Source: Amphiscolops sp. MND2022 (lineage: Eukaryota). Taken from it: a DNA stretch of 64,000 bases. The notes beneath the pieces are model-generated. The model was not told the origin of the DNA, ran no database searches, and was given only the letters and a program-made list of their open reading frames with translations. Both the position numbers and the translations under genes were made by a program. Within the stretch, counting starts at the first letter, position 1. Every line of letters starts with the position of its first letter. The stretch lies in contig OZ076409.1 of NCBI GenBank assembly GCA_964187785.1, positions 36,520,001-36,584,000 on the forward strand, written 5' to 3'. Below are positions 21,387 to 56,060 of this stretch, piece by piece.

Positions 21387-21468
21387 CTTTTGCGACTTAA
21401 AAGCCTTAAGATTAGATTGCTCTACAAACCATGTTGTTGATGTCTTCTTTTTACAGCATTGTTAACCA

Positions 21469-33400: not shown

Positions 33401-36400
33401 AAGTCTATCGATATTTTGACAAAAAGTGGAAAAAAGGAATTTGATAATTTTTCGAAATTTTGTCTTTTTCGATCTCGATTCCGGACAATTTCCTATTGAA
33501 AAACTATTTATCTCTTTTCTAAGCATACTAGACCACACTTTTTTTCCTTGTTGACCCTTTTCAACGTTCCAATTGGCGAAGTCTGTAAAAATTTGGAAAA
33601 AATGCATGAAATCTTTGAAAGTTGGAAAATTTTGTGTTTTTTTTGTCAATTTCGGTGTCAATTTGAGACATTTTCAATCAGAATATTGCAATTTTCTTCA
33701 TTAAAGTTTACGGGAGGTACCAATTTTTTCATTGTTGACCCTTCAAAACATTCCAATCCACGAAGTCTGTGAAACTTTAACAGAAAAGGCATAAAATTTT
33801 ACTTTGAAAGTTGGAAAATTTTGTGTTTTTTGTCAATTTCGGTGTCAATTTGAGACATTTTCGTTTGGAAAAATGCAATAAACTCTTTAAAATGGTCACT
33901 GGACAACCAACGTTTTCCTTGTTGACCCCTTAAAACATTCCAATCCACGAAGTCTCCAAAATTTGACGAGAAATGCGTAGAAACTTTGAAAAATGGAAAA
34001 TTTAGGGACTTTTGTCATTTTCGGTGTCAATTTGAGACTTTTTTCAGTGAAAAAACAGCCATTATCTTTTCGGAAACGCCTACTGGACAACAAACCTTGT
34101 ACCATGTTGATCGTTTTCAACATTCTAGTCCACGAATTTTATCGAAAATTTGACAAAAACTGCTTAAAAACGTTAAAAATCTGGAAATTTTTGGTTTTCT
34201 TTGTCGTTTTTGGGTCTTTTTCTTTCCAAAAAACCGCATTTATCTCTTCATAAACGACTACTGGACAACGAGTTTTTGTCTTTGTGAATCTTTTCAACAT
34301 TCTAATCCACGACATTTATCGGAAACTCGACAAAAATTGCATTAAAACGTAAAAAAATGCAAATTTTCTTTTTTTGGGGTCATTTTTAAGTTATTTTGGG
34401 GTCATTCTGGGGTCCTTGGGGTCAACTAAAAAAGTCCGGAAATCTCCACAAATACAATTCGCACGAAGCTAAATTTATGTGAGCTGAATTCTATGAGTGA
34501 AACCCTTTAGCTTTGATATAAATAAATTCTTGGCAAATTTTGTAAAAAAAAAAACCAGTTCGATTTAATTATTTTCCTTTCCCATATGAAATATGGGCGG
34601 AAAATAACAATAACTTGGACTCTTATCCTTCGCTCTCTGCGTATCTAGTTAGCTTATGAATCATCTGCAACAAAGTTTGAGGAATGAAACTAACTTGGTT
34701 ATTGAAATGGGAATGGTCTGTACAATGACTAGATTGACCTTGTTCTTAACTTGGGTCATATTTGCCCTTCTGTTGAGCGACAAGCGTAGCATTTGGAGAA
34801 GTAATGTCTTTCTCAACAAAACGAAATGCCTAATGAACTCTTTTCCGGTTAAACAAAATGCGTGGTAGCTCACTTCATTCATTGGTAATAAACGCCTACC
34901 TTTGCTAGTAATTTATGATCTATGAAATATCAGCTGGTTTCACCACAACAAAGCAATGATTCATTTGAATAACAGCCATTTCAAAACATAATATGGAATT
35001 TAAATAGTTGGTTTAGGAGTAAACTTGGTTCTCTAGTAACCTAATCTTCAAGAAAAGCTAATCAAGAGCCCTTCAAGTATTTAATATGCTGCAACTAGAA
35101 CCAGAAAATCGAATATGCATAGAAACCACTTATCTTACTATAACGTATCCCATCATCAAACTGTATTCGGGAATTCTTTGAAGACTTGAAAATTTTAAAA
35201 CTGATTTTTTCCATCAAATTTTCGAATAATTTTTAGGTAACATTTAATACTTTCTGGGATTTTGTGCATGGACAATTTATAAATGTTCTTTAGTTTTGTG
35301 AACGCTTGTTGAATTCAGTCTTTTGATGGTTTCATTCATCAAAATTCGCTTCTGTTTGTCGCCCACTTGTTTTCCAATTTTCGATAGAATTCAAAAATGC
35401 TAATTAGAAGAAAAATATTGCCTTGATGTAGTTAGATTCGTGTGGGATTTATATTCAGCAAATTAAGAGCGAGTCTAAAGATAGATCAAAACCAATTGTT
35501 GACAAAACTGCGCTTGATGTGCTACTGAGTTCACTCAACCTCTTGTCTATGGTTCAAACGCAAGACTTGATTCATTATTGTTCATTAATCGCGTTGATTT
35601 ATCGAGTTTTGCCACTGCAATGTTATTTCTCTGATTTTGAAGTATTTTCATTGAATAAATAACTTTTTCGGTGTCGGGAAAAAACGCTCAACGAAATAAC
35701 ACCATAGGAAAAAACGCCCAAAGCTTAAAGACGTCAATATACAGTGCTGTGATAAAGAAATGGAACATAAGGCTGTGATAAAGAAATGGGATTTTCCAAT
35801 TTTCCTCCATTGTTGCCTAAATAAACAAGGTATCGAGGGTTTATTTGGCATGGCCTCCTCTCGTTGTTCCATCTTCAAAACCGTTTCTTTCCAGAGCAAA
35901 TCGACTTTTAAACGATATGTTTGGACAAAGGATATGTCACAAAAATCCGACCATTTTTGGAAAAATGTGCTGTTCTCGGGCGAAACAATGATCGAGTTGT
36001 TCCCAAAACGGAGGAACTTTGTCCGTCTACCCAAACAGAGTAGAAGTCTGCAAAAATATGTTGGTCAACACGCTAAATTCTGTCGAAAAAAGACTGTCGT
36101 AAAATCGGCGTACATATGCTTTGCATGTAACACATCGGTTGCAGCGAAATCCACTGTTTTATACTTTGTAAAAATCAGCTCTTAGAAAGGTTTGCGGACA
36201 AGGGTTGATCATTTGCTTCAGGAGCTGCTGAAAGGCACTCAGCTGCTGTCAGAAATTGGGAAGAAGTACAAACTGAATGAAGATTTCGAGTCGTCTAGGG
36301 AGGAAACGATGAAACATATCATAGAATACATAATCAATCAATACACCTCAGTGACTCACTACCTGGAACAGTGTGGTCTGTCAGCCGACGACCAATCCCT

Positions 36401-38501: not shown

Positions 38502-40319
38502 ACCTCGACTGCCTTTCATGTCTGATCTATCGCATTGGCACCTCTTTCTGCACAAATATCAGCCATATCCCTCCAAACTTGTTTGCCTCGTGTGAATCTT
38601 TCTATTTGTGATTTATTTTTTAATATGCCATCTTCACCTCATTTCAATGAACCTCATTCGAATTTTTATCTCAGTACTTAATGTCCATTTTTAATTCAAT
38701 ATGTCGCTGTCTTTGAATTTTTGGGTTTTTCTTCGAATTGGAGTTTAAGGATAAGACGTACATTACGATGCCAATCGGGGGAAAACAGTGACCGCAACAA
38801 ATCTGTTGTAGTCTTATGTGGATTCTTCAACAGCATTATACCTAGTAGGTCTTCGCTCAAAGAACATGCTCATTATTTTCTTCCCGTAGCTTCATTTGTG
38901 TTTCACACTAGCCTACAAAGCAGCCTACCTTTTTTTTCCAAATTCTGATTCCTTTTGCCAGTTGCCCATTTTCTCTGGCACAGTTTTTTTCAACAAGTAA
39001 TTGGTACCTAGATTGATTTGAATGGCACAAGCATTAGAAAAAGGGAATACCAACCACATACCCTTCCACAACAAGTCCTGATGCAACAAACCCCTATAAT
39101 ATTCTGTTGTTACTACAAGCCCCCGCGCAGCGGGCCGCACGAAGTACCGGAAAAAGAGACTAAAATTCTGAAGGAAGGGGCGCGCGGCGACAGGGGCTCA
39201 CCTGACCAAAATGAAAGCCCAATATCAGACCTTTCAAACGCGCTATAGTTCCTCTGGTACGCGTAGTTGTGGAGATATTGATGATTGAATTTTTTTTGGC
39301 AAATTTTTCGAAAATTTTGAAAAACGCCCAGGTCGATTGGGGTTAAAAAATTGAAAAAATCTTCAGAAAACTTGAAATGAACAGTAAGCTACAGTGCGTC
39401 TCAAGCTACACTGCGTTTTTTTGCTGCCTACTACGAAAAGGTGAATTCACATCCAATCTACTGAGGAGAAATTTCCGAAGGGGTATAGATATAATACGTT
39501 CCGTTTTTTTTTAGTGATTTTTTCCAGCATGAATATCATCAGTTGTTCCTACTGCCTAATTGTTTTTATGACTATTTTAATTTTATGTTTCCACCAATGT
39601 TTTCCTGGAAGAAAACCATACTTAGACCGTTTAAGCTTAGCCAATGTTTTGTTTTTACAGTCGATGTTGGTCCAAGCTAGGTATCTTATTTTCGCCAGCA
39701 TTTTTTTCAAAGTTTGTACTTTTTCAAGGTATTGGATACAATCGAAAGATTTGAACGTGCGTGGTTTTTCAAAATTAGTCATTTTTTGAAAAATACTAGA
39801 CTGCTTTATTCCCGTTCATATTTATCAATTCTAAAAGGCTGTTTATATGAAAATTTCTTCGCTTTCAAATGTCAGAAAAAAACTGAAACAACCAGGGAAC
39901 GGCATAAATCGGCGCCATATCTAAGGCTCAAAAATAGCAAAAGGACTTCAAAGTGTCAAGTATTCTCTTCTACAGTACCCTATAGGTATGAGGAAAAAGA
40001 AATTGAAGCTTTTTTGCTATTTTTGAGCCTTAGATATGGCGGCGACTTGGGCCGTTCCCGGCTTGTTATTTTTTTATTGAATTTATTTTTTATGGTATCC
40101 TGTTGAAAGAGATGCGCTTTTTGGGTTCTCCTAACAGGATTGCATATGAAAAGACTCAATTATACGAATTCTTGAATTTATAGTTATAGGATCATTTCTA
40201 TGTTTTTTTCATAGGCCCTGTTCACTCGTCGCCTTTGCTCTCAACTGAGTTACGCTTATTTTATACCAGATTTTTTTCAACCCAAAGATTCTAATTATCT
40301 TGAATCTGTGATATATTTG

Positions 40320-42437
40320 TGTCACGACCCGCTCCCGGTCGGGATTTCACTTGCTGCGGAGGAATACCGCAATTCACGCGAGGAAAAGGACACGGCAGAG
40401 CTACGCAACACTAAGTAAACTTTGTTTAATGCCTTACCTTTTATCCGAACAGCAGCACGAATTAGGTTTAACGGAAGCGCCACGTAAATTATTCAAAAAT
40501 GATTTAGACAAAAAGAAAATTTCCGGTTTAATGATTTCACATGCAATCATTTCATCACTTCCGGTTTCAACTGATGAAAATTCCATGTCAATCTAAATAT
40601 TAAAAAAGAAAACATCCTTAACACTGGGATTAATTTTTCTCTTCTCCACACTAAAATGAAAACACTAAAACAATATTTAATTCCGTAATCCCAACGGAAC
40701 GCATACAATCTAAAATGAAAGAACATACAAAGAAGATGGTGGAATTGTTTTCCAATGATTGAATAGTTGTGAATATCCACTTAAGAATGCAGTCAAACAA
40801 CTTAAGAGAATATTTACAACGTAATGGCAGCGTCACTAAGCTTGATTGAAAGGTAGACGTTTCTATTTTTACGGACCAATAGCGTCGTCTTTCACCATCC
40901 CTAATCACCATAGCAACGCCAATTGAGCGAGAGAATAAGAATGAATTTGTCAACGCTGTCCGCTCTGTCTCCGCAAGCAAGCACCGCTCAGCTATACCTA
41001 ATCTTAATACGTACGGAGCGCTTACGGAGCAAATTGTAATGCGAAGAAGCTATACCTAATCTTAATACGTACGGAGTGTTTACGGGGCGAATTGTAAATC
41101 GACGAAGTTATACCTAATGTTAATACATGTAAGACAAGCGTGGAAAATTCTAAAACATAGAAGCTATCCAAATACATCAGGATGATCCCGAGGTCATGTA
41201 GAATTATCCCAAGATATTTAAATTATCATAAGGTTTTATTTTTTCCACCCGAATTTTCCCCGTCTTAGTGATCGATTAAAATGGTTCGTGCTGTTAATTA
41301 GGATAAAAGTGAATCCTTACAAAGAGTGCTTCTTCCTATTCTGTATAAGGATGCTCTGTGTACTAATCACGTTGTAGAAACGTTGCTTTCATGAATATAC
41401 TATTTATTTGTTGCATTTATCAGTATTAACTGACTGAATTCATGTAAAGTTAGGTAGAATATTGTTGGTTGTTCTCTGATGTACAATAATCAGGTCTTTT
41501 AGTTCATATTCATCATTTTCCAGCATCATTTGTTCCTTCCCAAATATCACAATTTATCAACCCGAAATTCGTTCGAAATATTTCCGTAACAAACTTCACT
41601 TGTCATTTCTTTTATCGCAAGCTGAAAAGTTACTGTTCATAAAGTGAATCATCGTTCACGCCCGCGTGCTTTCCGCGATAAAGTTTCGACTTGACATTTG
41701 TTTTGCCGCCTTTCCCGCGATCAAACCGGAAATGATGTTAATGAACAAAAATGATTTCAACAAGTACTCCGTAAGGGAGCCGCGACTGGGAATTTTAAAT
41801 CGTGAACAATTAATTAAAGGGTTGAAATAATAGAGATGATTAAGCACTTTTGTTGAACAAAACCGATTTTTAGGATTCCTAGGAATTTTTAGGTGAGGAA
41901 CAAATGATGCTGTGAAAGTATATATACCTAAGAATTTGTAAATCTAATCAATCTGTTTTCCTAATCTACTCCGTTGATACTTCGTTTCGAAAACCATATT
42001 TCTCTGAAGAATTCAAATTTTTCCAAAGAACAATCGCTCTCTCGTTCTATCGAAAATGACTACTAGAAGCCAGAAGAGAAAAGCTGTTGAAGAATTAGTT
42101 TCCACCGAAATGGAGACCCCAATAGCTGAGGTCAACCAAAACCTAAATCCCGTAGCGGGGTCAAGTAAATCTCCTAGAGTAATCACTGAAAATCTAGAAG
42201 AAATCAAGTCTTCGCTAAGAAAAGAAATCATGTCTGATCTTACCAAAATCTTAGCCGAAAACCAAAAGGAGATGTTAAAACTTATAGCTGCTCCTGTTAA
42301 AAAACAAACTGTCATAGCCACTACTGAAGAGACAGATTCTGAATCCGAAAACATCCCGGAAAATGCAACTTCAACACCAATCAAAAGTAAAACCACTGTG
42401 ACTAATCGTAAAATCACCCCGGTAAATAGTCGTAACA
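40320..42437 (+). repeat. Gypsy 5' LTR (2118 bp)
   Basis: TG...CA ends with an 8/9 terminal inverted repeat; only 3 differences from the 3' LTR found by eye (41065, 41795, 42004). Confidence 0.97.
40990..41126 (+). repeat. 58-bp tandem repeat (~2.4 copies) inside the LTR (also 54605-54741)
   Basis: AGCTATACCTAATCTTAATAC-type unit starts at 40990, 41048 and 41106. Confidence 0.85.
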
Positions 42438-43468
42438 TGGTGACAGGAGTCCTCAATGACTCAACGAACCTCGGCAAAAAGAAAACACGACCGCACCGCC
42501 CACAAAGTTTGCCACCCAACGAACGGCCTTCAACATCACGCCTACTCTTCGCTCCCCAACCGGAAATACACCAGCTGCCACACCTACCCCCAATGCCCAA
42601 AGCACTCACTGCGTCATTGCCCGTATTCGATGGTAAGTCAGAAAAATTCGAACTTTTCGAGGACTTATTCAGGAACAACATAAAAATGTACCCACACCTG
42701 ACAGAAATCCAAAAAATCAACTACTTCCACTCACTACTACGAGGCAATGCACTACAGGCATATTGCAACCTAGATGATGCCAAAAAAGATAACTTAGAGG
42801 AAGTAATAACGGCGTTCAAACGACGCTTCGGAGATTTCCAATCTTCTGCCAAAGCGAGATGTGAATGGGACTCGCTACATTTTGACCCAACCAAACAAAA
42901 ATTACATGAATTTTTGGATACACTGCAAAAAACGGCTAAAGAAGCGTTCGGCTCTGAAGCACAAAAATTTATAGACAAGGCCATATACGCCAAAATGCCA
43001 GACCACGTCAAAAAGATCCTCAACCGAGCCTACCTCGAGGACAAACCCTATAATGATATTGTCCTACATCTCGAACGAGAGATGCGCCTTAATGGCCTAG
43101 GTGCCCCAGACGAAACCACACTAGTACCACTAAATACGGTCGACGTCGTCCCATCGGAACCAAAAAAGGAACTCACCCAACGAGGAAGCTGCTTCCACTG
43201 TGGTAAACAAGGACACTATAAAGCACAATGCCGCAAATTAAGAAAAGATCGTTACTACGAAACTAAAGCACAGAACGGTGTCCCCAAAACCATTGAACCA
43301 CCCAAACCAAAGTGCGACACTTGCGGGAAGCTCCACAAAACCGAGAACTGCTGGTACGGAGCTAATGCGGCGAATGACCCCAGAAAGAAACGTCATGAAT
43401 TCACAATACCCACTAGCCAAATCAGCGAACAACCAATCCCCACTGTTGAAATCCAGCCAAAAAACTAA
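42056..43468 (+). CDS. gag: Gag polyprotein, 470 aa (starts inside the 5' LTR)
   Basis: Capsid-like 'LPVFDGKSEKFELFEDLF...KINYFHSLLRGNALQAY...FKRRFG'; zinc knuckles CFHCGKQGHYKAQC and CDTCGKLHKTENC; AAAATG start context. Confidence 0.95.
   Translation: MTTRSQKRKAVEELVSTEMETPIAEVNQNLNPVAGSSKSPRVITENLEEIKSSLRKEIMSDLTKILAENQKEMLKLIAAPVKKQTVIATTEETDSESENIPENATSTPIKSKTTVTNRKITPVNSRNMVTGVLNDSTNLGKKKTRPHRPQSLPPNERPSTSRLLFAPQPEIHQLPHLPPMPKALTASLPVFDGKSEKFELFEDLFRNNIKMYPHLTEIQKINYFHSLLRGNALQAYCNLDDAKKDNLEEVITAFKRRFGDFQSSAKARCEWDSLHFDPTKQKLHEFLDTLQKTAKEAFGSEAQKFIDKAIYAKMPDHVKKILNRAYLEDKPYNDIVLHLEREMRLNGLGAPDETTLVPLNTVDVVPSEPKKELTQRGSCFHCGKQGHYKAQCRKLRKDRYYETKAQNGVPKTIEPPKPKCDTCGKLHKTENCWYGANAANDPRKKRHEFTIPTSQISEQPIPTVEIQPKN
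42438..42450 (+). other. Primer binding site, tRNA-Leu-like
   Basis: TGGTGACAGGAGT immediately after the LTR end. Its reverse complement ACTCCTGTCACCA differs by one base from the 3' end of the familiar metazoan tRNA-Leu(CAG) (ACTCCTGACACCA). Confidence 0.75.
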
Positions 43469-43512
43469 AAACGCCGCGCCTCCGCTTCGGGGAAACGGTA
43501 GACGCGAGGGCG
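43459..43512 (+). promoter_or_regulatory. -1 ribosomal frameshift signal joining gag and pol
   Basis: A-AAA-AAC heptamer (43459-43465) in gag phase directly before the TAA stop; 6-nt spacer; GC-rich stem CGCCGCG...CGCGAGGGCG (43472-43512). The -1 frame is open from the heptamer into the pol ORF. Confidence 0.88.
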
Positions 43513-46500
43513 TACACAATAGAAGACCCCCCAAATCGCTATGAAGAAGACTTCATGACGGAATGCAACGAAGAACCGACACAGGACTGGCAACGTCGTT
43601 GGAACGTAGGCATGATCCTCCGACACAATGCACGACACCCAGAAGACCCAACACCACTACCCCAATGGATAACAGAATCGCCCGATAACTACGCGACACT
43701 AAAAAGACCCCTACCAGAATCAAAGACTGAACGCATCTACATATATGATAAAGACTATAGATGTGACCCCTGGGATGAACCAGCCATCTATGACACAAAC
43801 AAACTCTCTTTTAAGATCCAAGTTTCAAATCCTCAAGCTCAAGTCACCGAGAGTACAACCCTACCAACACCTTTGTCACCAACCCTAAAAAAGACGACAC
43901 AGTCCTCGCCAACACCCGTCACCACCACGTACACACCAATAGATGCAGAGAATATTATCTGCATTGAAGACAAAACAATATGGTCACAACAAGCAAAAGA
44001 ACAACGCGGAGTAGCCGACCAAACAGTATCACCCCCAACAACAGCATCTGAATGGCCAAATCAGAACAACAATCACGAAGACGACGAAGTAACGGAATGC
44101 CCACAACAACTGCCATACGATCTCAACATCATAAGAGAATTCATACAACATGATAAAGATGACGATTACATCCCGTTAATGTCGGCAATTACCCTCAAAA
44201 AGAAGAAAAGAATGCTCTTTATCCCTCTCGACTTTGAAAACACTAGAATTGATGCATTAGTCGACTCAGGAGCCTACATCAACGTCATCAGTGAAAGAGA
44301 TGCAGACAAAATACAAACTGAAGCCAACGCAACCATAATCGCGAAAGCACCTCCGCCCCCTTTCAAGATACAATATGCCAATACAGAACTCGAAAAAGCC
44401 CGTGCAACATACACAATGCAATTCAAAATCGGGGATTACGCGTTCGAGGAGACTTTCATCATCATGACCAAAACCTCCTACCCAATCATTGGCCTGGCAT
44501 TTCTCCGGAAACATTCCGCAATCCTAGATACTGCACAAGGAACAATAGACTTTCCCAAAATACAAATCACTCTAGCCCTAAAAGATGAAAGACAGAAGTG
44601 CAATCCCAAACCCATCACTATCAAAACGGAAGAAAAACACACCATACCAGCACAAGCCACGCGGATTATCCACGCGTCCATCACTGCAAGCAATGACCAC
44701 TCAATAACTGGGACAGTTCAACCCCTACCGCAGTTCGACGAAAATGCAAAACTTATAGTAGCCCCAGCAATAACAACAGCCCGAGACAAACGAGTTGCGA
44801 TAAAAATAGCGAACACCACAGATTTCCCCTATACAATAACGCCACATACGAAACTAGCAGAATTACAAATACTGAAACCCGAAGAAACGAAACTAATAAG
44901 AGCAGTAGACATAGCAGCCCTCAATCTACTTACCGAACATGACGATGTTGTTGCGTACGTTAATGCACTCATGCAAGTTGATTCGTCAGACCAAACAGAA
45001 GAGAAATTCTGGTTCCCAACTCCTGAAAATCCCGGAGATGAATCGGAACACACACCCATCCAACAACGCATTCTACGAGAACTACGCGAACTACAAAGAC
45101 TAGAAGAACTGGACCCCAAACAAGACGAAAAATCTAGAACACAATTCCTCTCGCTATTCAAATGGAATGATTCACTAATAACGGGAGAAGACCGCGAAAA
45201 TCTAGAGTCCACATTAGTCGAATTCAATGACATTTTTGCACGTCACCGACTGGATATCGGAATGAACAACCAGTTCAAGGTATCCCTAACTCCCAAAAAC
45301 GACAAACCGGTATATACACAGAGTCTCCCCGTACCCATCAACCTCAAAGACGACCTCACAGTAGAATTGGCACTGATGCACAAATACGGGATCATCACAA
45401 CCCTCCCATTCTCGAAATATGCCAGCCCCATCTTCGCGCAACGCAAACCCAACGGAAAACTACGGCTCCTAGTAGACTTACGGAAAATCAACGCCCTCAT
45501 CTCAGATGACTACATAAACAACAACCACCCCATCAGCACCCTCTCGGACGCCGCACAACATCTAGCAGGAAAGCAGCTGTTCTGCAAACTAGATTGCTCA
45601 CAAGCCTATCACTGCCTCCAAATGGCAGATCAAAGGTCAGTAGAACTCCTTGCATTTAATTTTGCTAGTAGAACGTTTGCCTATCGTAGGCTAGCCCAAG
45701 GCCTTAGTAGAGCCTTGTCAGCTTTTTCGAGCTTCATGCGGGAATACCTCGACACCGTCATCAAAGCAGACCAGTGTGCCCAATATGTGGACGACATCGG
45801 AATCGCCGCCAACACAACGGAACAACTCATCAAGAATATCAGAGCAGTCTTCAAATGCATCCGCAAGGCAGGACTAAAACTCACAATTGAAAAATGCCAC
45901 TTTGGTGTCACCCAAATCGAATTCCTAGGGAGAACCATCACACCCCACGGAGTAGCACCGCAAGAACACAAAATCACCAGCTTCTTATCAAAAATCAGAT
46001 TTCCCCGGTCAAAGAAACAAGTCCAGAAATACATTGGATTCATCAACTACTACCGAAACTACATACCAAGACTGTCCGAAAAAATGATTGGAATGTATGA
46101 ACTCCTAAAAGCAGATGCCAAAATCACCATATCAGAAGAATTAGTCGACAACTTCAAAGCCATCAACGCGAGCCTAGCGGAAGCATGTGGGCTAGCCCTC
46201 AGACAACCAGTTGCGGGAAAACAATACGTACTAATGACGGACGCAAGCTTCCGGGCATCAGGCTACGCCCTAATGATAGAAGAAAATGACGATAAAAAGC
46301 TACTCTCCAAACGGAAAACTTTCGCACCGGTCGCTTTTGGTTCCCGCGTATTCTCGCCGTCACAACTGAAGATGTCGATATACTGTAAAGAATTCCTTGC
46401 AATATATCATGCATTCCTTGAATATAGTCACATTCTCTGGGAAACAACACTACCTACACTAGTACTGACAGACAACAGATCAGTAACGCGATTTTTCCAG

Positions 46501-48675
46501 ACAAAAACAACGCCACCTGCTCTCTGGAATGCCTGCGACTACGTACTCCAGTTCAAATTCCGCATCATGCACGTAGCAGGCTCGCAAAATACAGCAGCCG
46601 ACTTCCTGTCTCGACTCGAAGTAACTCCAAAAGAGAGAATCCAACTCAAATTACGAGACGATATCATAACGGCACCCATCGAGGTTAACCTACAGTCTAC
46701 AGACGTTGCGGACGAAGAACAACTCTTTTTCCTGCCAGATGAAGAAGAGGAATCAGAACAAGAAATTTTCGCCAGGAAAGCCCTTAGCAAACAACGAGCA
46801 ATAGACGAAAAGGAACAACAAAACTTGACAACGGAAGTCACAGAAACAGTGCACATACCTCTTAACTCAGCAGTATACGCCTTTGGAGCCATCAAAGAAA
46901 ACGCCCGCATTCGCAACGAACAGGACGCGGACCCGATATTAAAAGCATTGAAACTACGGCTGCTTCACGAAGAATACGACAAACACCTCCTCAAGACTGA
47001 ACCCAGAGGACGAAACCTACTACGTCACGAGGAAAGAATAATAGTCAAAGACGGAGTACTCATGCGTAAGTACTACGGAGAAGATGGCACAGTAACACAT
47101 CACCAAATCCTCATACCAAAACATATAGTACCAGAACTCCTATTGACGCTACATGGAAAAATGAACAAACACCCAGGAATAACCAAAATGATTCAGGAAA
47201 GCCGAGCAAAGTACTACTATCCGGGACTAGCGCGGAAAATTAGAGCCAGGGTAATCAACTGCCCAGATTGCATCGCCAACAAACGAATTGACACGCGCCA
47301 AATACGTCCTAAAATGCTGAGTAACACAGAATTCACATTCGGACCAGAAGATTGCCTAGAAGTCGATATACTACCAAACCTACCCTCATCAAACGGCTAC
47401 AAACACATCGTAACCATGATGGATGTTTTCTCCCGTTATTTATTCGCATACCCCACTCAAGACATGACAGCCAGAACAGTAGGACGATGCATAATTGACG
47501 TTATGACGCGTCATTGTTATCTGCCTACAGTGATTCTAACTGATAAAGGATCACAATTCCGATCAGATGTAGTAAATCAAATTGCACAGACACTTGACAT
47601 CCGGATCAGCCACGCGTCAACAAAGCATGCACAAACAATCGGCATACTCGAAAGAACGCATGCATCTCTAAAGACTTCCCTCAAGATATCAACGGGAGAA
47701 CGCCGTTCGATGTGGCACAAATACGTACAAATTGCAGTAATGAACTACAACACTAGTTACCACGAGAGCCTAGGATGTGAACCAACAACCGTATTTCACG
47801 GACGCATCCCGTACAACATCCTGGACATCAAGCTGGGACTCAAGCCAGAATGGAAAAAAGATGCCAACGAAGACCTAACGGACGAATTACAAAAGCAAAT
47901 CGCTGAAATCCACCAGTCAGCCAAGGACAACCTCATGCAATCATATTTGAAGTATAAGCGATATTATGATAAAAAAGCGACAGCAACGCCATTGAAAATC
48001 AATGACTATTGCTACGTCCTGAACCCGAAGGCTGATAACCAGTCAATAAAATTCGCTTTCAAAGATTGCATTTGGACAGGACCATATATAGTGGTCAAAG
48101 TCCTTTCCAATAACAATTACGTCGTAAGACGGACAGGAACTAGATATACGCAAACCCTCCATAGAATTCGCCTAAGGCTATATGCGCCCAATCAACGAGT
48201 ACCTGACGTAACAGTCAAAGTGGAAGACCAGCTTCCAGATCCCGAGGTTAAAACAACCCATGATGATTGGTACGCGCAAGCTTGGGAAACCGAATTCGGA
48301 GAAGTTCTGTTCGGCAACTCATCAGAGAGAGAAAATGAAGAAGCTAACATCACAGAGCTGCCAGCGGAAGACGCAAATACAACGGAGCAAGAAACAGTTA
48401 TAACAACTGCGGACGAAACTTCAATACCAGAACAAATTCCCCCCGGAAATGAAACGCCGCTCAACTTAGATGTCAGCGATAACCCTTTCATAATGACCCC
48501 ACCGCCTACAGAAAGCCCCCCAATACCGCCTACATTACCACCTATAGTAGTTGGGTATAATCCGAGAAAAACAGGAAGATACAACCTACGGCCTAATCCT
48601 AAACCTAACGCGCATCCTGACTTCCGGATGCTCGACGCAATCGTCACGGAAGAAAGCTCTCAAGCCTCAAACTAG
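43465..48675 (+). CDS. pol: Pol (protease, dUTPase-like insert, RT, RNase H, integrase), expressed as Gag-Pol by -1 frameshift; first ATG at 43555
   Basis: LVDSGA (protease); LRLLVDLRKIN, KLDCSQAY, LAQGL, YVDD (RT); MTDAS, KEFLAI, LTDNRS (RNase H); H-H-CPDC, EVDIL, LTDKGSQF, ILERTH (integrase); WTGPY motif. No stops over 1706+ codons. Confidence 0.97.
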   Translation, partial: LKTPRLRFGETVDARAYTIEDPPNRYEEDFMTECNEEPTQDWQRRWNVGMILRHNARHPEDPTPLPQWITESPDNYATLKRPLPESKTERIYIYDKDYRCDPWDEPAIYDTNKLSFKIQVSNPQAQVTESTTLPTPLSPTLKKTTQSSPTPVTTTYTPIDAENIICIEDKTIWSQQAKEQRGVADQTVSPPTTASEWPNQNNNHEDDEVTECPQQLPYDLNIIREFIQHDKDDDYIPLMSAITLKKKKRMLFIPLDFENTRIDALVDSGAYINVISERDADKIQTEANATIIAKAPPPPFKIQYANTELEKARATYTMQFKIGDYAFEETFIIMTKTSYPIIGLAFLRKHSAILDTAQGTIDFPKIQITLALKDERQKCNPKPITIKTEEKHTIPAQATRIIHASITASNDHSITGTVQPLPQFDENAKLIVAPAITTARDKRVAIKIANTTDFPYTITPHTKLAELQILKPEETKLIRAVDIAALNLLTEHDDVVAYVNALMQVDSSDQTEEKFWFPTPENPGDESEHTPIQQRILRELRELQRLEELDPKQDEKSRTQFLSLFKWNDSLITGEDRENLESTLVEFNDIFARHRLDIGMNNQFKVSLTPKNDKPVYTQSLPVPINLKDDLTVELALMHKYGIITTLPFSKYASPIFAQRKPNGKLRLLVDLRKINALISDDYINNNHPISTLSDAAQHLAGKQLFCKLDCSQAYHCLQMADQRSVELLAFNFASRTFAYRRLAQGLSRALSAFSSFMREYLDTVIKADQCAQYVDDIGIAANTTEQLIKNIRAVFKCIRKAGLKLTIEKCHFGVTQIEFLGRTITPHGVAPQEHKITSFLSKIRFPRSKKQVQKYIGFINYYRNYIPRLSEKMIGMYELLKADAKITISEELVDNFKAINASLAEACGLALRQPVAGKQYVLMTDASFRASGYALMIEENDDKKLLSKRKTFAPVAFGSRVFSPSQLKMSIYCKEFLAIYHAFLEYSHILWETTLPTLVLTDNRSVTRFFQTKTTPPALWNACDYVLQFKFRIMHVAGSQNTAADFLSRLEVTPKERIQLKLRDDIITAPIEVNLQSTDVADEEQLFFLPDEEEESEQEIFARKALSKQRAIDEKEQQNLTTEVTETVHIPLNSAVYAFGAIKENARIRNEQDADPILKALKLRLLHEEYDKHLLKTEPRGRNLLRHEERIIVKDGVLMRKYYGEDGTVTHHQILIPKHIVPELLLTLHGKMNKHPGITKMIQESRAKYYYPGLARKIRARVINCPDCIANKRIDTRQIRPKMLSNTEFTFGPEDCLEVDILPNLPSSNGYKHIVTMMDVFSRYLFAYPTQDMTARTVGRCIIDVMTRHCYLPTVILTDKGSQFRSDVVNQIAQTLDIRISHASTKHAQTIGILERTHASLKTSLKISTGERRSMWHKYVQIAVMNYNTSYHESLGCEPTTVFHGRIPYNILDIKLGLKPEWKKDANEDLTDELQKQIAEIHQSAKDNLMQSYLKYKRYYDKKATATPLKINDYCYVLNPKADNQSIKFAFKDCIWTGPYIVVKVLSNNNYVVRRTGTRYTQTLHRIRLRLYAPNQRVPDVTVKVEDQLPDPEVKTTHDDWYAQAWETEFGEVLFGNSSERENEEANITELPAEDANTTEQETVITTADETSIPEQIPPGNETPLNLDVSDNPFIMTPPPTESPPIPPTLPPIVVGYNPRKTGRYNLRPNPKPNAHPDFRMLDAIVTEESSQASN

Positions 48676-48841
48676 ATAAAAACAAATAACGAGCCAAACC
48701 GAACCGGAATGGCAACGTCAATTTTTCTCTCCACTAAAATAATCACTACGCAACAAACTAAATAGAATGGATATAGAATACTGGCCAAAGAAAACAAGAA
48801 AAATAACAATAGATACATAAAGTTATTTCGGAAGAGCACAC

Positions 48842-51800
48842 TCAGAGCTTCTTTATTCTATGCCGAACTTCAGGATCTTCGTTCGCCTTTGTCTTGCTCC
48901 CTTTAGACTTCTTCGAAGCACTCTCGCTGCCACCTTTTTTAATCACGGCCACATCTGCACTCACAACGCTCTTCTTTGACGTCGAACCACCAGCAACTGT
49001 TCCCACCGACGTGCCCTGTCCGCGGATCTCCAATACCTTCTTGCTTTTCACAGTAGAACTAGAAGTACTGCCAGTATCACTGACGACTGATCCTTGTCTC
49101 GAACGTGCCTCACGGTTAGCCTTGTTCAGCCCAATATAATAGCTCTCACAGGATTTCCGACGCTCCAATATAAAATCACGATATAGCGATCTATAACGAG
49201 TAATGAACGCATCCAGATCCTCTCCGCATATGTCACGCCACAAATCAAAATCAGCTGCAACATAGAAAGCTCCAGCATTTGCGATAGCCTCCCGGACTAC
49301 ATCCAGAGTACGATCCACAAAGAAAGTTTTGTGAGCATAACCCCAACTGAGCACATACGACTGGACTAACAGCAAACAATCACGAACAATCGCCGTACTA
49401 AAGGCACAACCACTCAAGTCGAGCGTCACAACAGGGGGAACAGCTTCGGGCACCCCGATCACCAAACAACAGAGCTTGAACACACGAAACAGATGCACTC
49501 GGGCCTGGAAACTAAAATCCCGGATAAGGTACCGGATAACATCTGGAATGTCACTTGCAGCATGTTCTTCACCCGCGTGTTGTCTCCGCTTCTCAATGAT
49601 GTAACTATGGTACTCCTCCACTGCAGCTGCTGATTCGTCCGCCTTCAACACTCCACAGGATTTCAACAGATTACACAAAGACGCAAACAACCCAAACACA
49701 GTGTGGTCATCACCCTCCAGCATAATCTCAGGGCAAAAACTGTAGAGTCCCTGAGACAGTTTCGAAGTTACAGCCATGTTCCGCAACAAAACCACCACCA
49801 GATGATCCAGGAAAGAACGACACTTTGAGCGAAAATCGCGAATCTCACTCGTCTTCCCTGCAGCCAGCTCTTTTCCATAAGCATAGTTTGAAAGGAATTC
49901 CTCGATTGGCACTGCTGCAAAAGAACTCAGTTTGCTCTCGTCCATATACGACTCCCAATCGTGAATCCCAGGAAGATCAGAAGAACTACGGGTCTTTAGC
50001 AGCAGGCAGTAAACAAAGTTGCAGATCTCACCATAACCGTGAAACCCGTAATCAGCCCGGCCCTGTTGCAGCTTCTCGAAGTTGAAAACAACTAAAACAC
50101 ACACGATATATCAGAAATTGGAATACAATAGAAACCCCAGTCGAAATCAAGCCGATAGATCCATTTCTCCTCTCAATCTGTACAATCAGAAAACATAATA
50201 CAAAACAAAAACAAAAGACCATACTTACAAAGATCGAGCACCTGACGGAGTAATCCGAACCGATAAACCATAAGGTTATCAGAGATTATCTCAAAATCAG
50301 TGCCCTTCAGCTAAAAAGCAACAACCAGTTAACCTACACAGTTCAACCACTGAAGACGACAAAGAAGAACAAAAAAAAAGAGAGAAAGAAAAAAAAACAA
50401 TAACCCACCCTGTCCACAACGTCTTTCAAGTGGGGATGACCAGTATATCGAATATACGGACGAATGGAAGGCCACAGTTCTATGAGGTCCGTCAGCATAG
50501 CGCGGAGATCACTAAAGTCAACGGAACCTGAGCGTACTGCCTTCTTTAGAATTGGTTTGTCCTCCACCCAATCCTCATGCACGACACTTTTCAACCGGAG
50601 GACCACATATTCCACCGCAGTCATCACTTCCAGCATTCCAAAAATGTCTTGGTGCGCTTGACGGAAACACTGCATAAACACGTCCTCGTTGAATCGTCGC
50701 ACCTGTAGAAACTCCCGACCATCGTCACGATTGTCGCCAAGAACGCGGAGTAAAGACGGGCTACCACCCACAATTGACACTGGTAGCTGCTGTGAACCAA
50801 CACTGCTAACAACACGTGCCAAGGGAACAAGCTCCGCGTCTGGAACTGGAAGATCCAATGACTGACTTCCCACACAGACTTTCTTTAAGTAGTTGCCCTC
50901 CCAACAGAGCACGTAACACCGCTCTTCAACCGTCGTCCTCTCATACTGAATGGCATACTCCTTAAAGCTCGCAATGCTCTTTAGTGTCAAACGCAAGACC
51001 CGCGGCGCAAGGCCCTGACACAAAAAAGACTAAAACACACAACAATATCATAACGGCGCCACCTAACAACCTACAAAATATACAAATATATATATCACAC
51101 TACCAACCACAGTCTCTGACCGACTCCAACCCAAAGCGTACTGAGGTGCTTGCGTCTCCAAAGTAGCACAGAAATGACCCCACAGGCGCCGCAGCAACGT
51201 ATAATCACCTCCACTACTCAGCAAATCGCAGAAGCTTGACACCAAAGTCATAAATGGCACTCGGGATGTCACTTGGGCATGTTTGGGCACTCGATCTTCC
51301 GGGAATGGAAAGCCCTCCGCCAAGTCTACGAAAGCACGAGCACTGAAATCAGCCAACTGGTTAGCGGACAGGACCATAGGCTCCATCAAACGATTCAGCA
51401 CAGGAAGCCCCATGTGGACACGATACGTGACATCACGAAACCAATGACCATCACTCCGGAAATGCCGCGCAAATTCACCAGCTCCTTGCGCTTTCATTCC
51501 AACGTCCCGATGACACACGCGACAAAAGAAAAATTTGTCGGAGCCACTCTTGGAACCAGATACGAAGATTTCATAGGCGGGATTTAGAGTCAGCATATCA
51601 CGACGCAACCGGTTCCGGCTGCTGTACTTCTTCACCTTCTTCGCGCTACCCAATCGCTCTTCCATCTTTGCAGCAAGATCTTGGAGACCTACAACAACAA
51701 ACAAATCCTCAGCGGAAAACAAAATAGACATACCGACGACGAACTCATGACAGCTTTCCAGGACAATATAACGAAAGTACCCCAACCAAAATTATAAACG

Positions 51801-52871
51801 AAAGTATACGTACTGTTCTGAATCGTTTGTGAAGCTCTGGTTCCAACTTCATCCACAAGCTGTCTTCCCAACAAAGCCACATCCTGAGGGCTTAACGCTA
51901 ACCCACCGGGGCCACTCAGAGGATCTTCCTCTTGACCTAAAACATCAACCCCCGGCTAAAACCTGAAGAACAAAACACAAGATCACCCTCCCTTCCACAG
52001 TTTGAATATAAAAATACCTCACAATTGACCCAAATAACGACCCTACCCACAATATATAAATAATACTAACTACTCAAAGGATTAGCTACAACAGTATCCA
52101 GAGGAGGAGACGACGAAGAACCCCTTGCATTCCGACTGCGTTTGCTGGGGGTCACGATTTTCACGGAAGTCTTCCGTGACCTGCTCAATTTTGAACCTAC
52201 AACAATCACACCTTTTGACTCACCCGTATACAACGCGGAAAACGCTCACAACAAACAACAAAACTGCCAAGTAACCTTTCAAAACTCCAGGGCGGGGATT
52301 AGCCTCACCTTCGTGAGACTCTTCGCTAGTGTCCAAACGTTGTTGCGAGTCAGCTATCAACCCAGAAAGCCCAGGTCCACTAACCCCAACTGCAGTGCCA
52401 CCCGGATCTGCGGCGGAACAACTGACTGCTTCAGTCGTGGGAAGGTCAAACTCTGAGACGTTAGGCAACACAGTAGTCAGCATCTCGCTAACAGTAAGTA
52501 ATGGAGCCGTCGACAAAACGGAAGACACAGGTGGCAGTTTGGAAAAAGACTCTGGTAACCCTCCTTCATCTCCAAAGGAAGAACTGGCCGGGACAGCCCC
52601 GGGAACAACAGAGGAGGAAGCAGGTTGAGTTACTGAAAATCAAGATCTGGTTTGACGCGTCAGAGTTACGGGTAAGACTGGAAAAGGCTGATCACCAAAA
52701 CAACAGTCCAATTACCCAAGAGAGTCAGAAAGATTTTTACCAACCTGGAACATGACACACAGGATCGCCTTCTGAATGCAGAACATCACCGTCGGAATAA
52801 CAATAATTGGTTTCATTGCCACTAAGACAACCAGCAGCAGTGGCGGCAGGAACCTCACTCTCCTTATCCAT
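48842..52871 (-). CDS. Antisense 8-exon cargo gene, predicted 1077 aa, hAT-transposase-derived zinc-finger protein lacking catalytic residues. Exons: 52871-52745, 52632-52309, 52196-52071, 51936-51814, 51688-51108, 51029-50409, 50310-50229, 50091-48842
   Basis: Seven GT..AG introns of 112, 112, 134, 125, 78, 98 and 137 nt (donors GTTGGT, GTGAGG, GTTAGT, GTACGT, GTTGGT, GTGGGT, GTAAGT; T-rich acceptors). Phases 1,1,1,1,0,0,1 join into 3234 nt with no internal stop. C-x2-C-x16-H-x5-H finger at 51524-51444. The exon 6 acceptor could instead be 51015 (same phase). The 5' exons are less certain than exons 5-8. Confidence 0.82.
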
Positions 52872-52949
52872 AAGCAGAAAGAATCTGAAACAAAAAAATT
52901 ACAATCAAAAGTGAGCAGAGAAAAGAAAGATGGCAGAACTACCCCGGAA

Positions 52950-53200
52950 GGATGATGTCATGAGAAGAATTAAATCCAAAAAAATTAAGGAGAAAACCTA
53001 AAAGAGAAAAAAAAAAGGACATTTTCAAAATCATGACGTCCCGCGAATTATTCCCAGAAAAAGAATTGATGACGTCATGATGTAGCTCAAAATTGGAAAC
53101 TTATTTCACGGCTCAGCCAATCACAACGCAGATGGAAGTGAAACGCTTTCCGAAGATGAAACGAATTGATATAAAAAGGAAAATAATAGCCAATGAGAAT
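52950..53200. promoter_or_regulatory. Putative internal bidirectional promoter
   Basis: Lies between divergent ATGs (52871 minus, 53295 plus). Palindromic CRE ATGACGTCAT (53069-53078), near-CREs at 52953 and 53034, AGCCAAT boxes at 53115 and 53188, TATAAAAAG at 53170. Confidence 0.5.
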
Positions 53201-53294
53201 GCAGGAAAATTACGAACGGAAGAAAGTTAACCTCTTCACTTGCCGCATTCTAAACGTAAAGATAAGACAGCTTGCAATAATCAAAAAACTTAAA

Positions 53295-54029
53295 ATGAAT
53301 AACTACGACTTAGTTATCGATATCTCCTCCGACGAAGAAGAACGGGGAAGCAACGTAAGACAGAGCACCCCGATCAAAATACTCCCGCTTAATGTGATAA
53401 CAACTCTGGATCTTTCTGAAGCCTCCTTAGAAGCTACAAAAGGCAGCGCAGAAGAGATGATGGACTCTATCAATAGTCTAAATTTATCTGGCATCTCAGC
53501 GTCTACATTTGAGACTATCGGTTCTCCGAGAAAAATAAACCTCGGCTCTACAAGCCCTGGTGAAGCCTTCATAGTGGAAGGACATAATACTGAAACGTCT
53601 GAAGAAAGCTACTTCGAAGAGCCGGATACTCCCCGTCAATTACCGCCGCTGCAGCCCGCCCCAGTATTACGAGACGTGTCTAACAAAGAACTGCAGTACT
53701 ATGGACCGCCTGCAAAAGCCGACAAACTCGATGATTTGATGGAGCCAGCAGTAGAAGAAATCGAAAACGCCTACGGCATAGATCTTCAAAGCAGCCGAGA
53801 GAGCAGCCCGTTGTGCGGACGGGGAACGCACTACACTTCTACAAAACTGGCAAGAGCACGGAAACAACCAGTATTGATCACTAGAGAAATTCCCCACTGC
53901 CCCAGACCGTGGTCAACAGGCTATAGAGGCGCCCTGTCACGACCCGCTCCCGGTCGGGATTTCACTTGCTGCGGAGGAATACCGCAATTCACGCGAGGAA
54001 AAGGACACGGCAGAGCTACGCAACACTAA
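53295..54029 (+). CDS. Accessory ORF3, 244 aa (278 aa from the upstream ATG at 53193), acidic and Ser-rich, unknown function; runs 95 nt into the 3' LTR
   Basis: Open frame with AAAATG context like gag; N-terminal 'LVIDISSDEEE'; no signal peptide or transmembrane stretch visible. Confidence 0.65.
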   Translation: MNNYDLVIDISSDEEERGSNVRQSTPIKILPLNVITTLDLSEASLEATKGSAEEMMDSINSLNLSGISASTFETIGSPRKINLGSTSPGEAFIVEGHNTETSEESYFEEPDTPRQLPPLQPAPVLRDVSNKELQYYGPPAKADKLDDLMEPAVEEIENAYGIDLQSSRESSPLCGRGTHYTSTKLARARKQPVLITREIPHCPRPWSTGYRGALSRPAPGRDFTCCGGIPQFTRGKGHGRATQH

Positions 54030-56052
54030 GTAAACTTTGTTTAATGCCTTACCTTTTATCCGAACAGCAGCACGAATTAGGTTTAACGGAAGCGCCACGT
54101 AAATTATTCAAAAATGATTTAGACAAAAAGAAAATTTCCGGTTTAATGATTTCACATGCAATCATTTCATCACTTCCGGTTTCAACTGATGAAAATTCCA
54201 TGTCAATCTAAATATTAAAAAAGAAAACATCCTTAACACTGGGATTAATTTTTCTCTTCTCCACACTAAAATGAAAACACTAAAACAATATTTAATTCCG
54301 TAATCCCAACGGAACGCATACAATCTAAAATGAAAGAACATACAAAGAAGATGGTGGAATTGTTTTCCAATGATTGAATAGTTGTGAATATCCACTTAAG
54401 AATGCAGTCAAACAACTTAAGAGAATATTTACAACGTAATGGCAGCGTCACTAAGCTTGATTGAAAGGTAGACGTTTCTATTTTTACGGACCAATAGCGT
54501 CGTCTTTCACCATCCCTAATCACCATAGCAACGCCAATTGAGCGAGAGAATAAGAATGAATTTGTCAACGCTGTCCGCTCTGTCTCCGCAAGCAAGCACC
54601 GCTCAGCTATACCTAATCTTAATACGTACGGAGCGCTTACGGAGCAAATTGTAATGCGAAGAAGCTATACCTAATCTTATTACGTACGGAGTGTTTACGG
54701 GGCGAATTGTAAATCGACGAAGTTATACCTAATGTTAATACATGTAAGACAAGCGTGGAAAATTCTAAAACATAGAAGCTATCCAAATACATCAGGATGA
54801 TCCCGAGGTCATGTAGAATTATCCCAAGATATTTAAATTATCATAAGGTTTTATTTTTTCCACCCGAATTTTCCCCGTCTTAGTGATCGATTAAAATGGT
54901 TCGTGCTGTTAATTAGGATAAAAGTGAATCCTTACAAAGAGTGCTTCTTCCTATTCTGTATAAGGATGCTCTGTGTACTAATCACGTTGTAGAAACGTTG
55001 CTTTCATGAATATACTATTTATTTGTTGCATTTATCAGTATTAACTGACTGAATTCATGTAAAGTTAGGTAGAATATTGTTGGTTGTTCTCTGATGTACA
55101 ATAATCAGGTCTTTTAGTTCATATTCATCATTTTCCAGCATCATTTGTTCCTTCCCAAATATCACAATTTATCAACCCGAAATTCGTTCGAAATATTTCC
55201 GTAACAAACTTCACTTGTCATTTCTTTTATCGCAAGCTGAAAAGTTACTGTTCATAAAGTGAATCATCGTTCACGCCCGCGTGCTTTCCGCGATAAAGTT
55301 TCGACTTGACATTTGTTTTGCCGCCTTTCCCGCGATCAAACCGGAAATGATGTTAATGAACAAAAATGATTTCAACAAGTACTCCGTAAGGGAGCCGCGA
55401 CTGGGAATTCTAAATCGTGAACAATTAATTAAAGGGTTGAAATAATAGAGATGATTAAGCACTTTTGTTGAACAAAACCGATTTTTAGGATTCCTAGGAA
55501 TTTTTAGGTGAGGAACAAATGATGCTGTGAAAGTATATATACCTAAGAATTTGTAAATCTAATCAATCTGTTTTCCTAATCTACTCCGTTGATACTTCGT
55601 TTCGAAAACCATATTTCTTTGAAGAATTCAAATTTTTCCAAAGAACAATCGCTCTCTCGTTCTATCGAAAATGACTACTAGAAGCCAGAAGAGAAAAGCT
55701 GTTGAAGAATTAGTTTCCACCGAAATGGAGACCCCAATAGCTGAGGTCAACCAAAACCTAAATCCCGTAGCGGGGTCAAGTAAATCTCCTAGAGTAATCA
55801 CTGAAAATCTAGAAGAAATCAAGTCTTCGCTAAGAAAAGAAATCATGTCTGATCTTACCAAAATCTTAGCCGAAAACCAAAAGGAGATGTTAAAACTTAT
55901 AGCTGCTCCTGTTAAAAAACAAACTGTCATAGCCACTACTGAAGAGACAGATTCTGAATCCGAAAACATCCCGGAAAATGCAACTTCAACACCAATCAAA
56001 AGTAAAACCACTGTGACTAATCGTAAAATCACCCCGGTAAATAGTCGTAACA
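53935..56052 (+). repeat. Gypsy 3' LTR (2118 bp)
   Basis: Direct repeat of 40320-42437, followed by TSD ATTTG. Confidence 0.97.
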
Positions 56053-56060
56053 ATTTGTGA
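55671..56060 (+). CDS. LTR-borne copy of the Gag N-terminus (127 codons in the LTR plus 2 from the flank, then stop)
   Basis: Identical to gag residues 1-127; terminates in the host flank just after the TSD. Expression unknown. Confidence 0.45.
   Translation: MTTRSQKRKAVEELVSTEMETPIAEVNQNLNPVAGSSKSPRVITENLEEIKSSLRKEIMSDLTKILAENQKEMLKLIAAPVKKQTVIATTEETDSESENIPENATSTPIKSKTTVTNRKITPVNSRNNL

Follow-up and report, generated by a model that had tools for sequence, protein, structure and literature searches.

Additional open reading frames (ORFs) of unknown function have been described on the antisense strand between pol and the 3' long terminal repeat (LTR) of plant Retand/Tat retrotransposons and of the Boty element from Botrytis; in Retand, 97% of the clusters code for TRP28 (PF04195), and the word 'intron' is absent from the main text of both sources (PMC11963269, PMC7264820). 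Grande of maize (gene23), RIRE2 of rice and Retand of Silene have in common an opposite-strand ORF between pol and the 3' LTR, which occurs in most copies of the lineage, is reported to have its own promoter in Grande and is suspected, without proof, of a DNA-binding or regulatory role. Complex retroviruses also carry antisense genes, namely HBZ in human T-cell leukemia virus type 1 (HTLV-1) and APH-2 in HTLV-2 (PMC11963269), and the Drosophila element TART produces spliced antisense transcripts (PMC1636488). The window analyzed here comprises 64,000 nucleotides of the forward strand of contig OZ076409.1 (positions 36,520,001 to 36,584,000; assembly GCA_964187785.1) from Amphiscolops sp. MND2022. 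It contains a complete Ty3/Gypsy-type LTR retrotransposon (40320-56052), the minus strand of which bears, between pol and the 3' LTR, a predicted gene of eight exons and seven introns. The reading favoured by us, with a probability of about 0.8, is that this is a long-resident accessory antisense gene of the Gypsy element, encoding a hAT-transposase-like protein.

The gene of Amphiscolops differs from its plant Tat/Retand counterparts in the animal host, the hAT-transposase fold of the modelled protein, the presence of seven introns and the lack of Transposase_28 (PF04195). The likeness to the plant elements, which had been pointed out in the initial annotation, stands as an analogy and fails as kinship, neither TRP28 nor any other Pfam domain being found in the protein; by this analogy, the gene would work like an antisense accessory gene without being a member of the plant TRP28 family, and it appears hAT-like by fold only. 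With Hermes and other hAT transposases, as well as with the host genes derived from them (ZBED5, FAM200, GTF2IRD2, EPM2AIP1), the predicted protein shares a putative zinc finger and an RNase H-like core split by a large helical domain, whereas similarity at the sequence level and terminal inverted repeats are absent and the first two catalytic aspartates are apparently missing. Genes of hAT transposons commonly carry introns; unlike a hAT transposon or a single-copy host gene, however, the gene considered here is copied by a retrotransposon and exists in many copies. HBZ and APH-2 are comparable as antisense protein genes at the 3' end of a retroelement, having their own transcription and a nuclear regulatory role, both of which are predicted in our case. 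They encode short bZIP-type proteins, contain at most one intron (HBZ has a spliced form) and are transcribed from the 3' LTR, while the gene of Amphiscolops has 1077 codons, seven introns, a product derived from a transposase and an apparent internal promoter. TART, too, is a retrotransposon with a spliced antisense transcript, such a transcript being predicted in the present case, but it is a non-LTR element, and no conserved protein is known to be encoded by its antisense RNA. Neither an animal LTR element with a multi-intron antisense gene nor any LTR element with a hAT-derived gene was found in the literature searched, the coverage of which mostly excluded subscription journals, supplements and Repbase.

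Between pol and the 3' LTR, open frames of 422, 242, 228 and 139 amino acids (aa) are found on the minus strand, and no comparable frames are present on the plus strand of the same interval. As modelled, the gene consists of eight minus-strand exons (52871-48842) separated by seven GT-AG introns of 112, 112, 134, 125, 78, 98 and 137 nt with matching phases, which together give 1077 codons followed by TGA. The model was obtained by reading the minus strand and by an automated search limited to splice sites conserved in other copies, and it reproduced every figure of the initial annotation, i.e., seven GT-AG introns of 78-137 nt, their matching phases and 1077 codons, with the junctions 50409/50310, 50229/50091 and 51814/51688 at the same positions. 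Exon 1 (52745-52871, 127 nt; ratio of nonsynonymous to synonymous differences per site, pN/pS, 0.10-0.24) begins with the ATG at 52871, which is aligned in 12 of 13 copies and replaced by GTG in L034; an in-frame stop lies nine codons upstream of it. Exon 2 (52309-52632, 324 nt; pN/pS 0.32-0.37) encodes a low-complexity Ser/Pro-rich region and measures 336, 315 or 252 nt in other families, all being multiples of three. It is followed by exon 3 (52071-52196, 126 nt; pN/pS 0.24-0.35) with a conserved donor GTTAGT at 52070, by exon 4 (51814-51936, 123 nt; pN/pS 0.29-0.41) and by exon 5 (51108-51688, 581 nt), encoding a zinc finger and a helical region. Exon 6 (50409-51029, 621 nt) corresponds to the RNase H-like core (strands and helices 223-416 of the model described below); its 207 codons align without gaps in nine copies at identities down to 43%, and its genomic matches are open in 140 of 150 cases. 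The 82-nt exon 7 (50229-50310; pN/pS 0.08-0.19), proposed in the initial annotation between TTTTTAG and GTAAGT, was recovered with the same boundaries: its projected length is 82 nt in 12 of 13 copies (78 nt in L035), and all six intact models have 82 nt. Exon 8 (48842-50091, 1250 nt), ending with TGA, contains the 422-aa frame, encodes a helical part with a Lys/Ser-rich disordered tail, and is equivalent to residues 455-819 of the modelled homologue.

Reading through the introns is unworkable, because six of the seven have a length not divisible by three and the remaining one, of 78 nt, contains an in-frame TAG. None of 1000 dinucleotide-preserving shuffles reached 422 aa (mean longest frame 114 aa, maximum 236 aa); ORFs of at least 100 aa sum up to 1031 aa, compared with a shuffle mean of 130 aa, and the longest ORF on the strand antisense to gag-pol has 235 aa at most. 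Phase matching alone, however, is no proof, since a length-maximising chaining of GT and AG sites through weak pairs yields a meaningless frame of 1160 codons; this spurious model was dropped, and the model retained here rests on conservation of the sequence, not on the joins. Conserved sites decided two near-equivalent choices in the window, in favour of 52070 as a donor and of the acceptor preceding 51029; the rival acceptor CAG at 51016 is CGG in four copies. An alternative start at an ATG within exon 5 was ruled out, as this Met is replaced by Val in several families. Immediately upstream of the ATG of exon 1 an acceptor-like TTTCAG is seen (52872-52890, minus strand), and T-rich tracts ending in AG precede the ATG in other families as well; judging from these sites, one more intron may interrupt the 5' untranslated region.

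The position of the gene within a mobile element is evident from both the window and the rest of the genome. Self-comparison of the window revealed one long direct repeat (40320-42437 and 53935-56052; 2118 bp, 99.86% identity, three differences), the two copies of which represent the 5' and 3' LTRs with TG...CA ends and are flanked by the target-site duplication ATTTG at 40315-40319 and 56053-56057. Taking into account these repeats and the domains of pol (43450-48675, plus strand), the segment 40320-56052 is, by its sequence, a complete LTR retrotransposon of the Ty3/Gypsy type that was inserted recently. The host genome (1.07 Gb) is that of an animal, with 43 matches to the nuclear-receptor zinc finger and none to WRKY; searching it in six frames with exon 8 yielded 102 scored matches out of 7682 first-look candidates (searches for gene copies gave several thousand first-look candidates each, with 51-150 scored matches), the identity ranging from 100% down to 51%; no internal stop was present in 81 of these 102. 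Approximately 10 kb were fetched around twelve matches belonging to the 95%, 67% and 52% identity groups, and in all twelve the gene, oppositely oriented, adjoined pol at its 3' end. The same arrangement was observed in both of two further families, located via database proteins encoded in this same genome, in which exon 8 is 37% identical and pol 67-79% identical to those of the window. Altogether, 15 other copies were examined in their context, and in every one of them the gene is next to pol and oppositely oriented, the identity of pol varying from 96% to 46%, and the divergence of the gene ranks in the same order as that of pol. The sequences on either side of the gene share no inverted repeat. 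The antisense gene travels inside the LTR element. The initial annotation had proposed a maintained accessory gene and long residence rather than recent capture; its location inside an LTR pair with a target-site duplication, the 15 context copies and the splice-site and pN/pS data given below bear out the former, and the presence of the gene where pol is only 46% identical supports the latter more strongly than the compositional argument used at that time. The composition itself is as had been described, with an excess of A over T and of C over G on the plus strand running from pol through the gene region to about 52500.

Comparison of the copies also allowed the exon-intron structure to be evaluated. 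In a MAFFT alignment of 13 gene regions, GT is present at all seven donors of every copy; as projected from the alignment, AG marks six of the acceptors in all 13, while the seventh, shifted by a few bases in the alignment of six copies, reads AG in each of the six intact models. Introns 4-7 are retained even in the families with 37% identity of exon 8. The exons of the six intact models differ in length only by multiples of three (exon 6 having 621 nt and exon 7 having 82 nt throughout), and their introns measure 78 to 170 nt. Among 17 close copies, 32 indel events occurred in introns 5-6 versus 5 in exons 6-8, although these exons are more than ten times longer than these introns, and all six splice dinucleotides examined were retained in 14 of the 17. 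In 48 open frames containing exon 5, conservation of the amino acid sequence starts and stops precisely at the splice sites of this exon. The ratio of nonsynonymous to synonymous substitution rates (dN/dS), calculated by the Nei-Gojobori method for the two unsaturated pairs of copies, was 0.10 for the antisense gene and 0.10 for pol in the pair L032-L036, and 0.22 and 0.19, respectively, in the pair L040-L042. In both pairs, each of the eight exons had a pN/pS within 0.08-0.41, constraint being most relaxed in the four short exons at the N-terminal end. The antisense coding sequence is under purifying selection, and the positions of the introns are conserved while their sequences and lengths drift.

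An independent view of the introns was provided by related elements lacking some of them. A profile search of 1.84 billion representative proteins returned 928 relatives, nearly all of them being exon-sized fragments, and a single uninterrupted one of 890 aa (P0325), encoded on a 4-kb contig of another assembly. In the genome of the window this relative matches 51 scored places with 47-53% identity, represented by single open frames of 862-918 aa, 28 of which are free of stops. At the one place examined in context, pol is directly adjacent, lies on the opposite strand and is 46% identical to pol of the window. The spliced protein predicted for the window aligns with this sister clade over residues 231-1048 (E 1.8e-74), and the alignment is gap-free across junctions 5 and 7 of the three intron-less junctions. 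In the sister clade the last four exons are fused, introns 5-7 are precisely absent, and a T-rich tract with AG precedes the large exon at the position and phase of the intron 4 acceptor in seven of seven copies. Such a difference between two clades, with three introns exactly present or missing, is the comparative signature of real introns. The absent introns are the three nearest to the 3' end, and the upstream one is kept. Loss of introns biased towards the 3' end, via reverse-transcribed spliced mRNA, is an established model, which the pattern in the sister clade fits; if the loss did proceed in this way, a spliced mRNA exists. The alternative is that introns 5-7 were gained in the clade of the window instead of being lost in its sister. 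The existence of related elements without three of the introns, together with the hAT-like nature of the encoded protein, goes beyond what the initial annotation contained.

The protein was not recognized by sequence searches. Pfam gave no meaningful match for the exons (E up to 5), for 40 relatives of exon 8 and for full-length homologues (E up to 1), nothing relevant was returned by sequence and profile searches against PDB, the database relatives (sets of 111 and 155) are all unnamed, and a search for longer proteins gave none. RhoGAP-like leads (0.82-0.87) from a language-model search with exon 8 alone were weak and were discarded. Exon 8 folded alone with AlphaFold2 produced an all-helical structure with a disordered tail and a predicted local distance difference test score (pLDDT) of 67.9. 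An uninterrupted 863-aa homologue (L048) was then folded with an alignment of 52 sequences that included the exons of the window, and the resulting AlphaFold2 model had a pLDDT of 79.3, reaching about 90 over residues 170-770, and a predicted template modelling score of 0.68. In this model a strand-strand-helix finger is followed by three long antiparallel strands, a helix, a strand and a helix; the latter unit constitutes an RNase H-like core, matching exon 6 of the window, and is succeeded by a large helical region (exons 7-8) and a disordered basic tail. Foldseek comparison with PDB placed the Hermes hAT transposase at ranks 1-12 (probability 1.00, E 8e-5 to 7e-3), the hits below having a probability of 0.13 or less. 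VIA-align matched model residues 185-704 to Hermes residues 114-609 with Z of 12.5-13.5 and a root-mean-square deviation of 5.1-5.6 Å over 384-413 residues, the next entry having Z of 6.5. The nearest neighbours by language-model similarity (0.89-0.93) were Dimer_Tnp_hAT, DUF4371, FAM200-ZBED5, GTF2IRD2-like and EPM2AIP1 proteins. On the evidence of homology and of the model, the protein belongs among the very divergent relatives of hAT DNA transposases. Its modelled layout comprises a Cys2His2 finger of BED-like type, the RNase H-like core and a large insertion domain made of helices, extended by a low-complexity region at the N-terminus and by a basic disordered tail.

The finger (51444-51524, minus strand, exon 5) has the form Cys-x2-Cys-x16-His-x5-His, with C55 invariant and C58, H75 and H81 at least 90% conserved; in the model of the homologue it folds into two short strands and then a helix. 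It lies outside the structurally matched part and has no Pfam zf-BED match. Likewise, no Pfam match was obtained for the C-terminal dimerisation domain PF05699, which the language-model neighbours do carry. When the secondary-structure elements were placed, no conserved acidic residue was found in strand 1 of the core or after strand 4, where an invariant Gly occurs instead. The two catalytic aspartates therefore appear to be absent from the modelled protein, and, since no conserved acidic residue occupies either of these first two catalytic positions, the cut-and-paste activity has probably been lost.

Several points weigh against regarding the locus as a long-resident hAT-like accessory gene. 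Only 6 of the 13 modelled copies gave a wholly intact spliced frame with sites no more than 9 nt from those projected, the other seven showing a frameshift, a stop or an altered start, and all 13 had been preselected for an open exon 8, a bias that affects that exon only. The relationship to hAT transposases is carried by the fold and language-model similarity only, and no sequence method sees it; the modelled protein is 27% identical to that of the window and is not the window's own spliced product, and exon 8 alone has no Foldseek match at E up to 0.001. The catalytic positions were judged by secondary-structure placement, not by residue-level superposition, and the placement covers the first two aspartates and not the third residue. 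Splicing, promoter use and polyadenylation of the gene are predicted from the sequence, and the role that we would assign to its product is a guess, to which slightly less than even odds are given: that of a non-cutting nuclear DNA-binding cofactor acting in trans, either activating or shielding transcription of the element or guiding its integration. Finally, between the window family and the L032 family the synonymous sites (pS 0.78) and the introns (57-67% identity) of the gene are saturated, beside a pol dS of 0.64 and 82% identity of the LTRs; in two other pairs dS of the gene is close to that of pol. The body of the gene (48676-52632), in both its introns and synonymous sites, is far more diverged from L032 and L036 than are pol, the LTR and intron 1. 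Saturated gene sites beside a less diverged pol make it possible that the gene module has been exchanged between lineages, giving it a mosaic history.

The same excess of divergence is what a private acquisition, i.e., a recent nested insertion of a hAT element or a transduced host gene confined to one family, would lead one to expect, and LTR elements commonly undergo nested insertion and transduce genes (PMC7264820). Nevertheless, the gene occupies the same place and strand with the same exon structure in all 15 other context copies, across the whole range of pol identity from 96% to 46%, its divergence follows the order of that of pol, and terminal inverted repeats are missing, all of which renders such an origin very improbable. 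Still less credible, and practically to be dismissed, is a chance joining of open frames by chance GT-AG pairs. It is true that the minus strand is A-poor (A 0.207), which lengthens random ORFs, and that the length-maximising join gave its spurious 1160-codon frame, but the result of the shuffles, the conservation of sequence and splice sites, the pN/pS values and the confident hAT-like fold are all left unaccounted for.

Two further explanations accept a real gene or transcript and assign it another role. The product might be a still active hAT transposase, making this a double-mode element or a Gypsy element ferrying a transposase that mobilises other sequences; the fold match covering nearly the whole Hermes chain (residues 114-609) and the purifying selection agree with this, as does the fact that the placement of catalytic positions covers the first two of the three. 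Considering the lack of a conserved acidic residue in strand 1 and after strand 4 with its invariant Gly (from secondary-structure mapping only), of inverted repeats around the gene and of a Pfam hAT dimerisation match, we regard continuing activity as quite improbable. Somewhat more room, though still little, is left for the possibility that the antisense RNA itself matters, as double-stranded RNA, a small-RNA precursor or through transcriptional interference, or that the protein restrains the element as a copy-number control. Regulatory antisense transcripts of retroelements are known (PMC7264820), the ultra-conserved structured intron 1 described below could be a signal at the RNA level, and the direction of the protein's action is not indicated by any result. 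An RNA-only role, however, leaves unexplained the pN/pS of 0.08-0.41 in every exon, the indels in multiples of three and the conserved zinc finger; moreover, the predicted transcript ends before pol and so would pair with little of the coding RNA. Taken together, these considerations leave the long-resident accessory gene with a hAT-like product as the favoured explanation.

Outside the coding exons, the most conspicuous feature of the gene is a highly conserved 112-nt element with a hairpin that makes up intron 1 (52633-52744, minus strand). Its identity between families is 87-95%, compared with 46-72% for the exons (52-62% for the flanking ones) and 78-89% for pol. The hairpin has 11 pairs, three of which are changed on both sides, and 97% of the alignment cells are paired versus 23-46% when the pairing is slid; its loop is invariant and contains the palindrome TGATCA, with AGATCT and TGACGCGTCA nearby. 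This conservation is absent in the most distant families (L043, L044). No Rfam match was obtained for intron 1 at E up to 1, and its interpretation as a small nucleolar RNA was rejected, there being no Rfam match and the box spacing, estimated by eye, being too short.

A promoter-like region with inverted CCAAT boxes and TGACGTCA is located upstream of the gene (53030-53200, minus strand) and is conserved in 12 of 13 copies, each with a perfect TGACGTCA at a distance of 160-370 nt before the ATG and with two or three ATTGG preceding it. At the opposite end, an AATAAA overlapping the last codons (48852-48857, minus strand), which is not strictly conserved in other families, places the predicted end of the transcript on the stop codon, about 170 nt short of pol. 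The separate transcription proposed in the initial annotation is predicted from these two features and from the strand of the gene. The promoter-like region is also where a possible sense-strand ORF of 279 aa begins (53190-54029, plus strand), extending into the 3' LTR. It shows 30-84% amino acid identity in other copies and is open over 239-293 aa in five of nine of them; its product is acidic and Ser-rich with no real Pfam match. This frame may be a fourth gene of the element.

The remaining parts of the host element are arranged on the plus strand. The 5' LTR (40320-42437) is abutted by a primer-binding-site-like sequence with a TGG start (42438-42452), as read from the sequence; no tRNA genes were found in the window. 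The gag gene (42056-43468) matches DUF1759 (1.7e-09) and Retrotrans_gag (0.0014) in Pfam, and the pol frame of 1741 codons contains, in this order, protease, reverse transcriptase (RT), RNase H and integrase (Asp_protease 1.7e-05, RVT_1 3.7e-23, RT_RNaseH 2.6e-13, Integrase_H2C2 2.5e-10, rve 1.8e-12), ending before the antisense gene and the 3' LTR (53935-56052). DUF1759 is common in Bel/Pao elements, and for this reason the Gypsy assignment is based on the pol domains only. The gag frame is open from 42008, its first ATG (42056) lying about 380 nt within the LTR; if this ATG is used, the N-terminus of gag is encoded by the LTR, and the frame recurs at the end of the 3' LTR (55623-56060). Copies of exon 8 at C11:34834765 and 34848381 are spaced by the element's own period of 13,616 bp, and those at C4:68286891, 68304371 and 68321856 are spaced by 17.5 kb, which suggests tandem arrays of elements with common LTRs. 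Self-comparison also revealed further dispersed and tandem repeats with 75-96% identity in the left half of the window (9066-24928 and 33540-34367).

The following course of events could be proposed for the accessory gene. Its likeliest origin would be an old antisense insertion of a hAT transposon, the gene of which was kept while the ends were lost. Its introns would outlast retrotransposition because the genomic RNA of the element is their complement and offers no splice signals for them. Transcription of the gene would start from its own CCAAT/CRE-type promoter (CRE, cyclic AMP response element) upstream of the ATG, and the transcript would be spliced and then polyadenylated at the AATAAA on the stop codon, just before pol. 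A bolder proposal, which we consider tentative and on the whole rather unlikely, is that a large, expanding clade of animal Gypsy elements took over a hAT gene and depends on its product as a cofactor, which would tether the integration complex to chosen DNA, or else drive or shield transcription of the element. On this view the introns would be adaptive: retained owing to their antisense position relative to the copied RNA, they would make the accessory mRNA resemble that of a host gene, intronless invaders being possibly silenced by the cell, and their loss in the sister clade would be RT-mediated.

Antisense accessory genes of LTR retrotransposons are known mainly from plants, and the gene described here is an animal case, whose recognizable hAT ancestry leads to testable ideas such as DNA binding and targeting. 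Here the two major classes of mobile elements are durably joined in a single unit. Repeat masking conceals here a conserved protein family of many copies. Finally, abundant related families within one genome differ by three precise introns in a gene that is reverse-transcribed in each generation, and this difference constitutes a natural experiment on the retention, loss or gain of introns.

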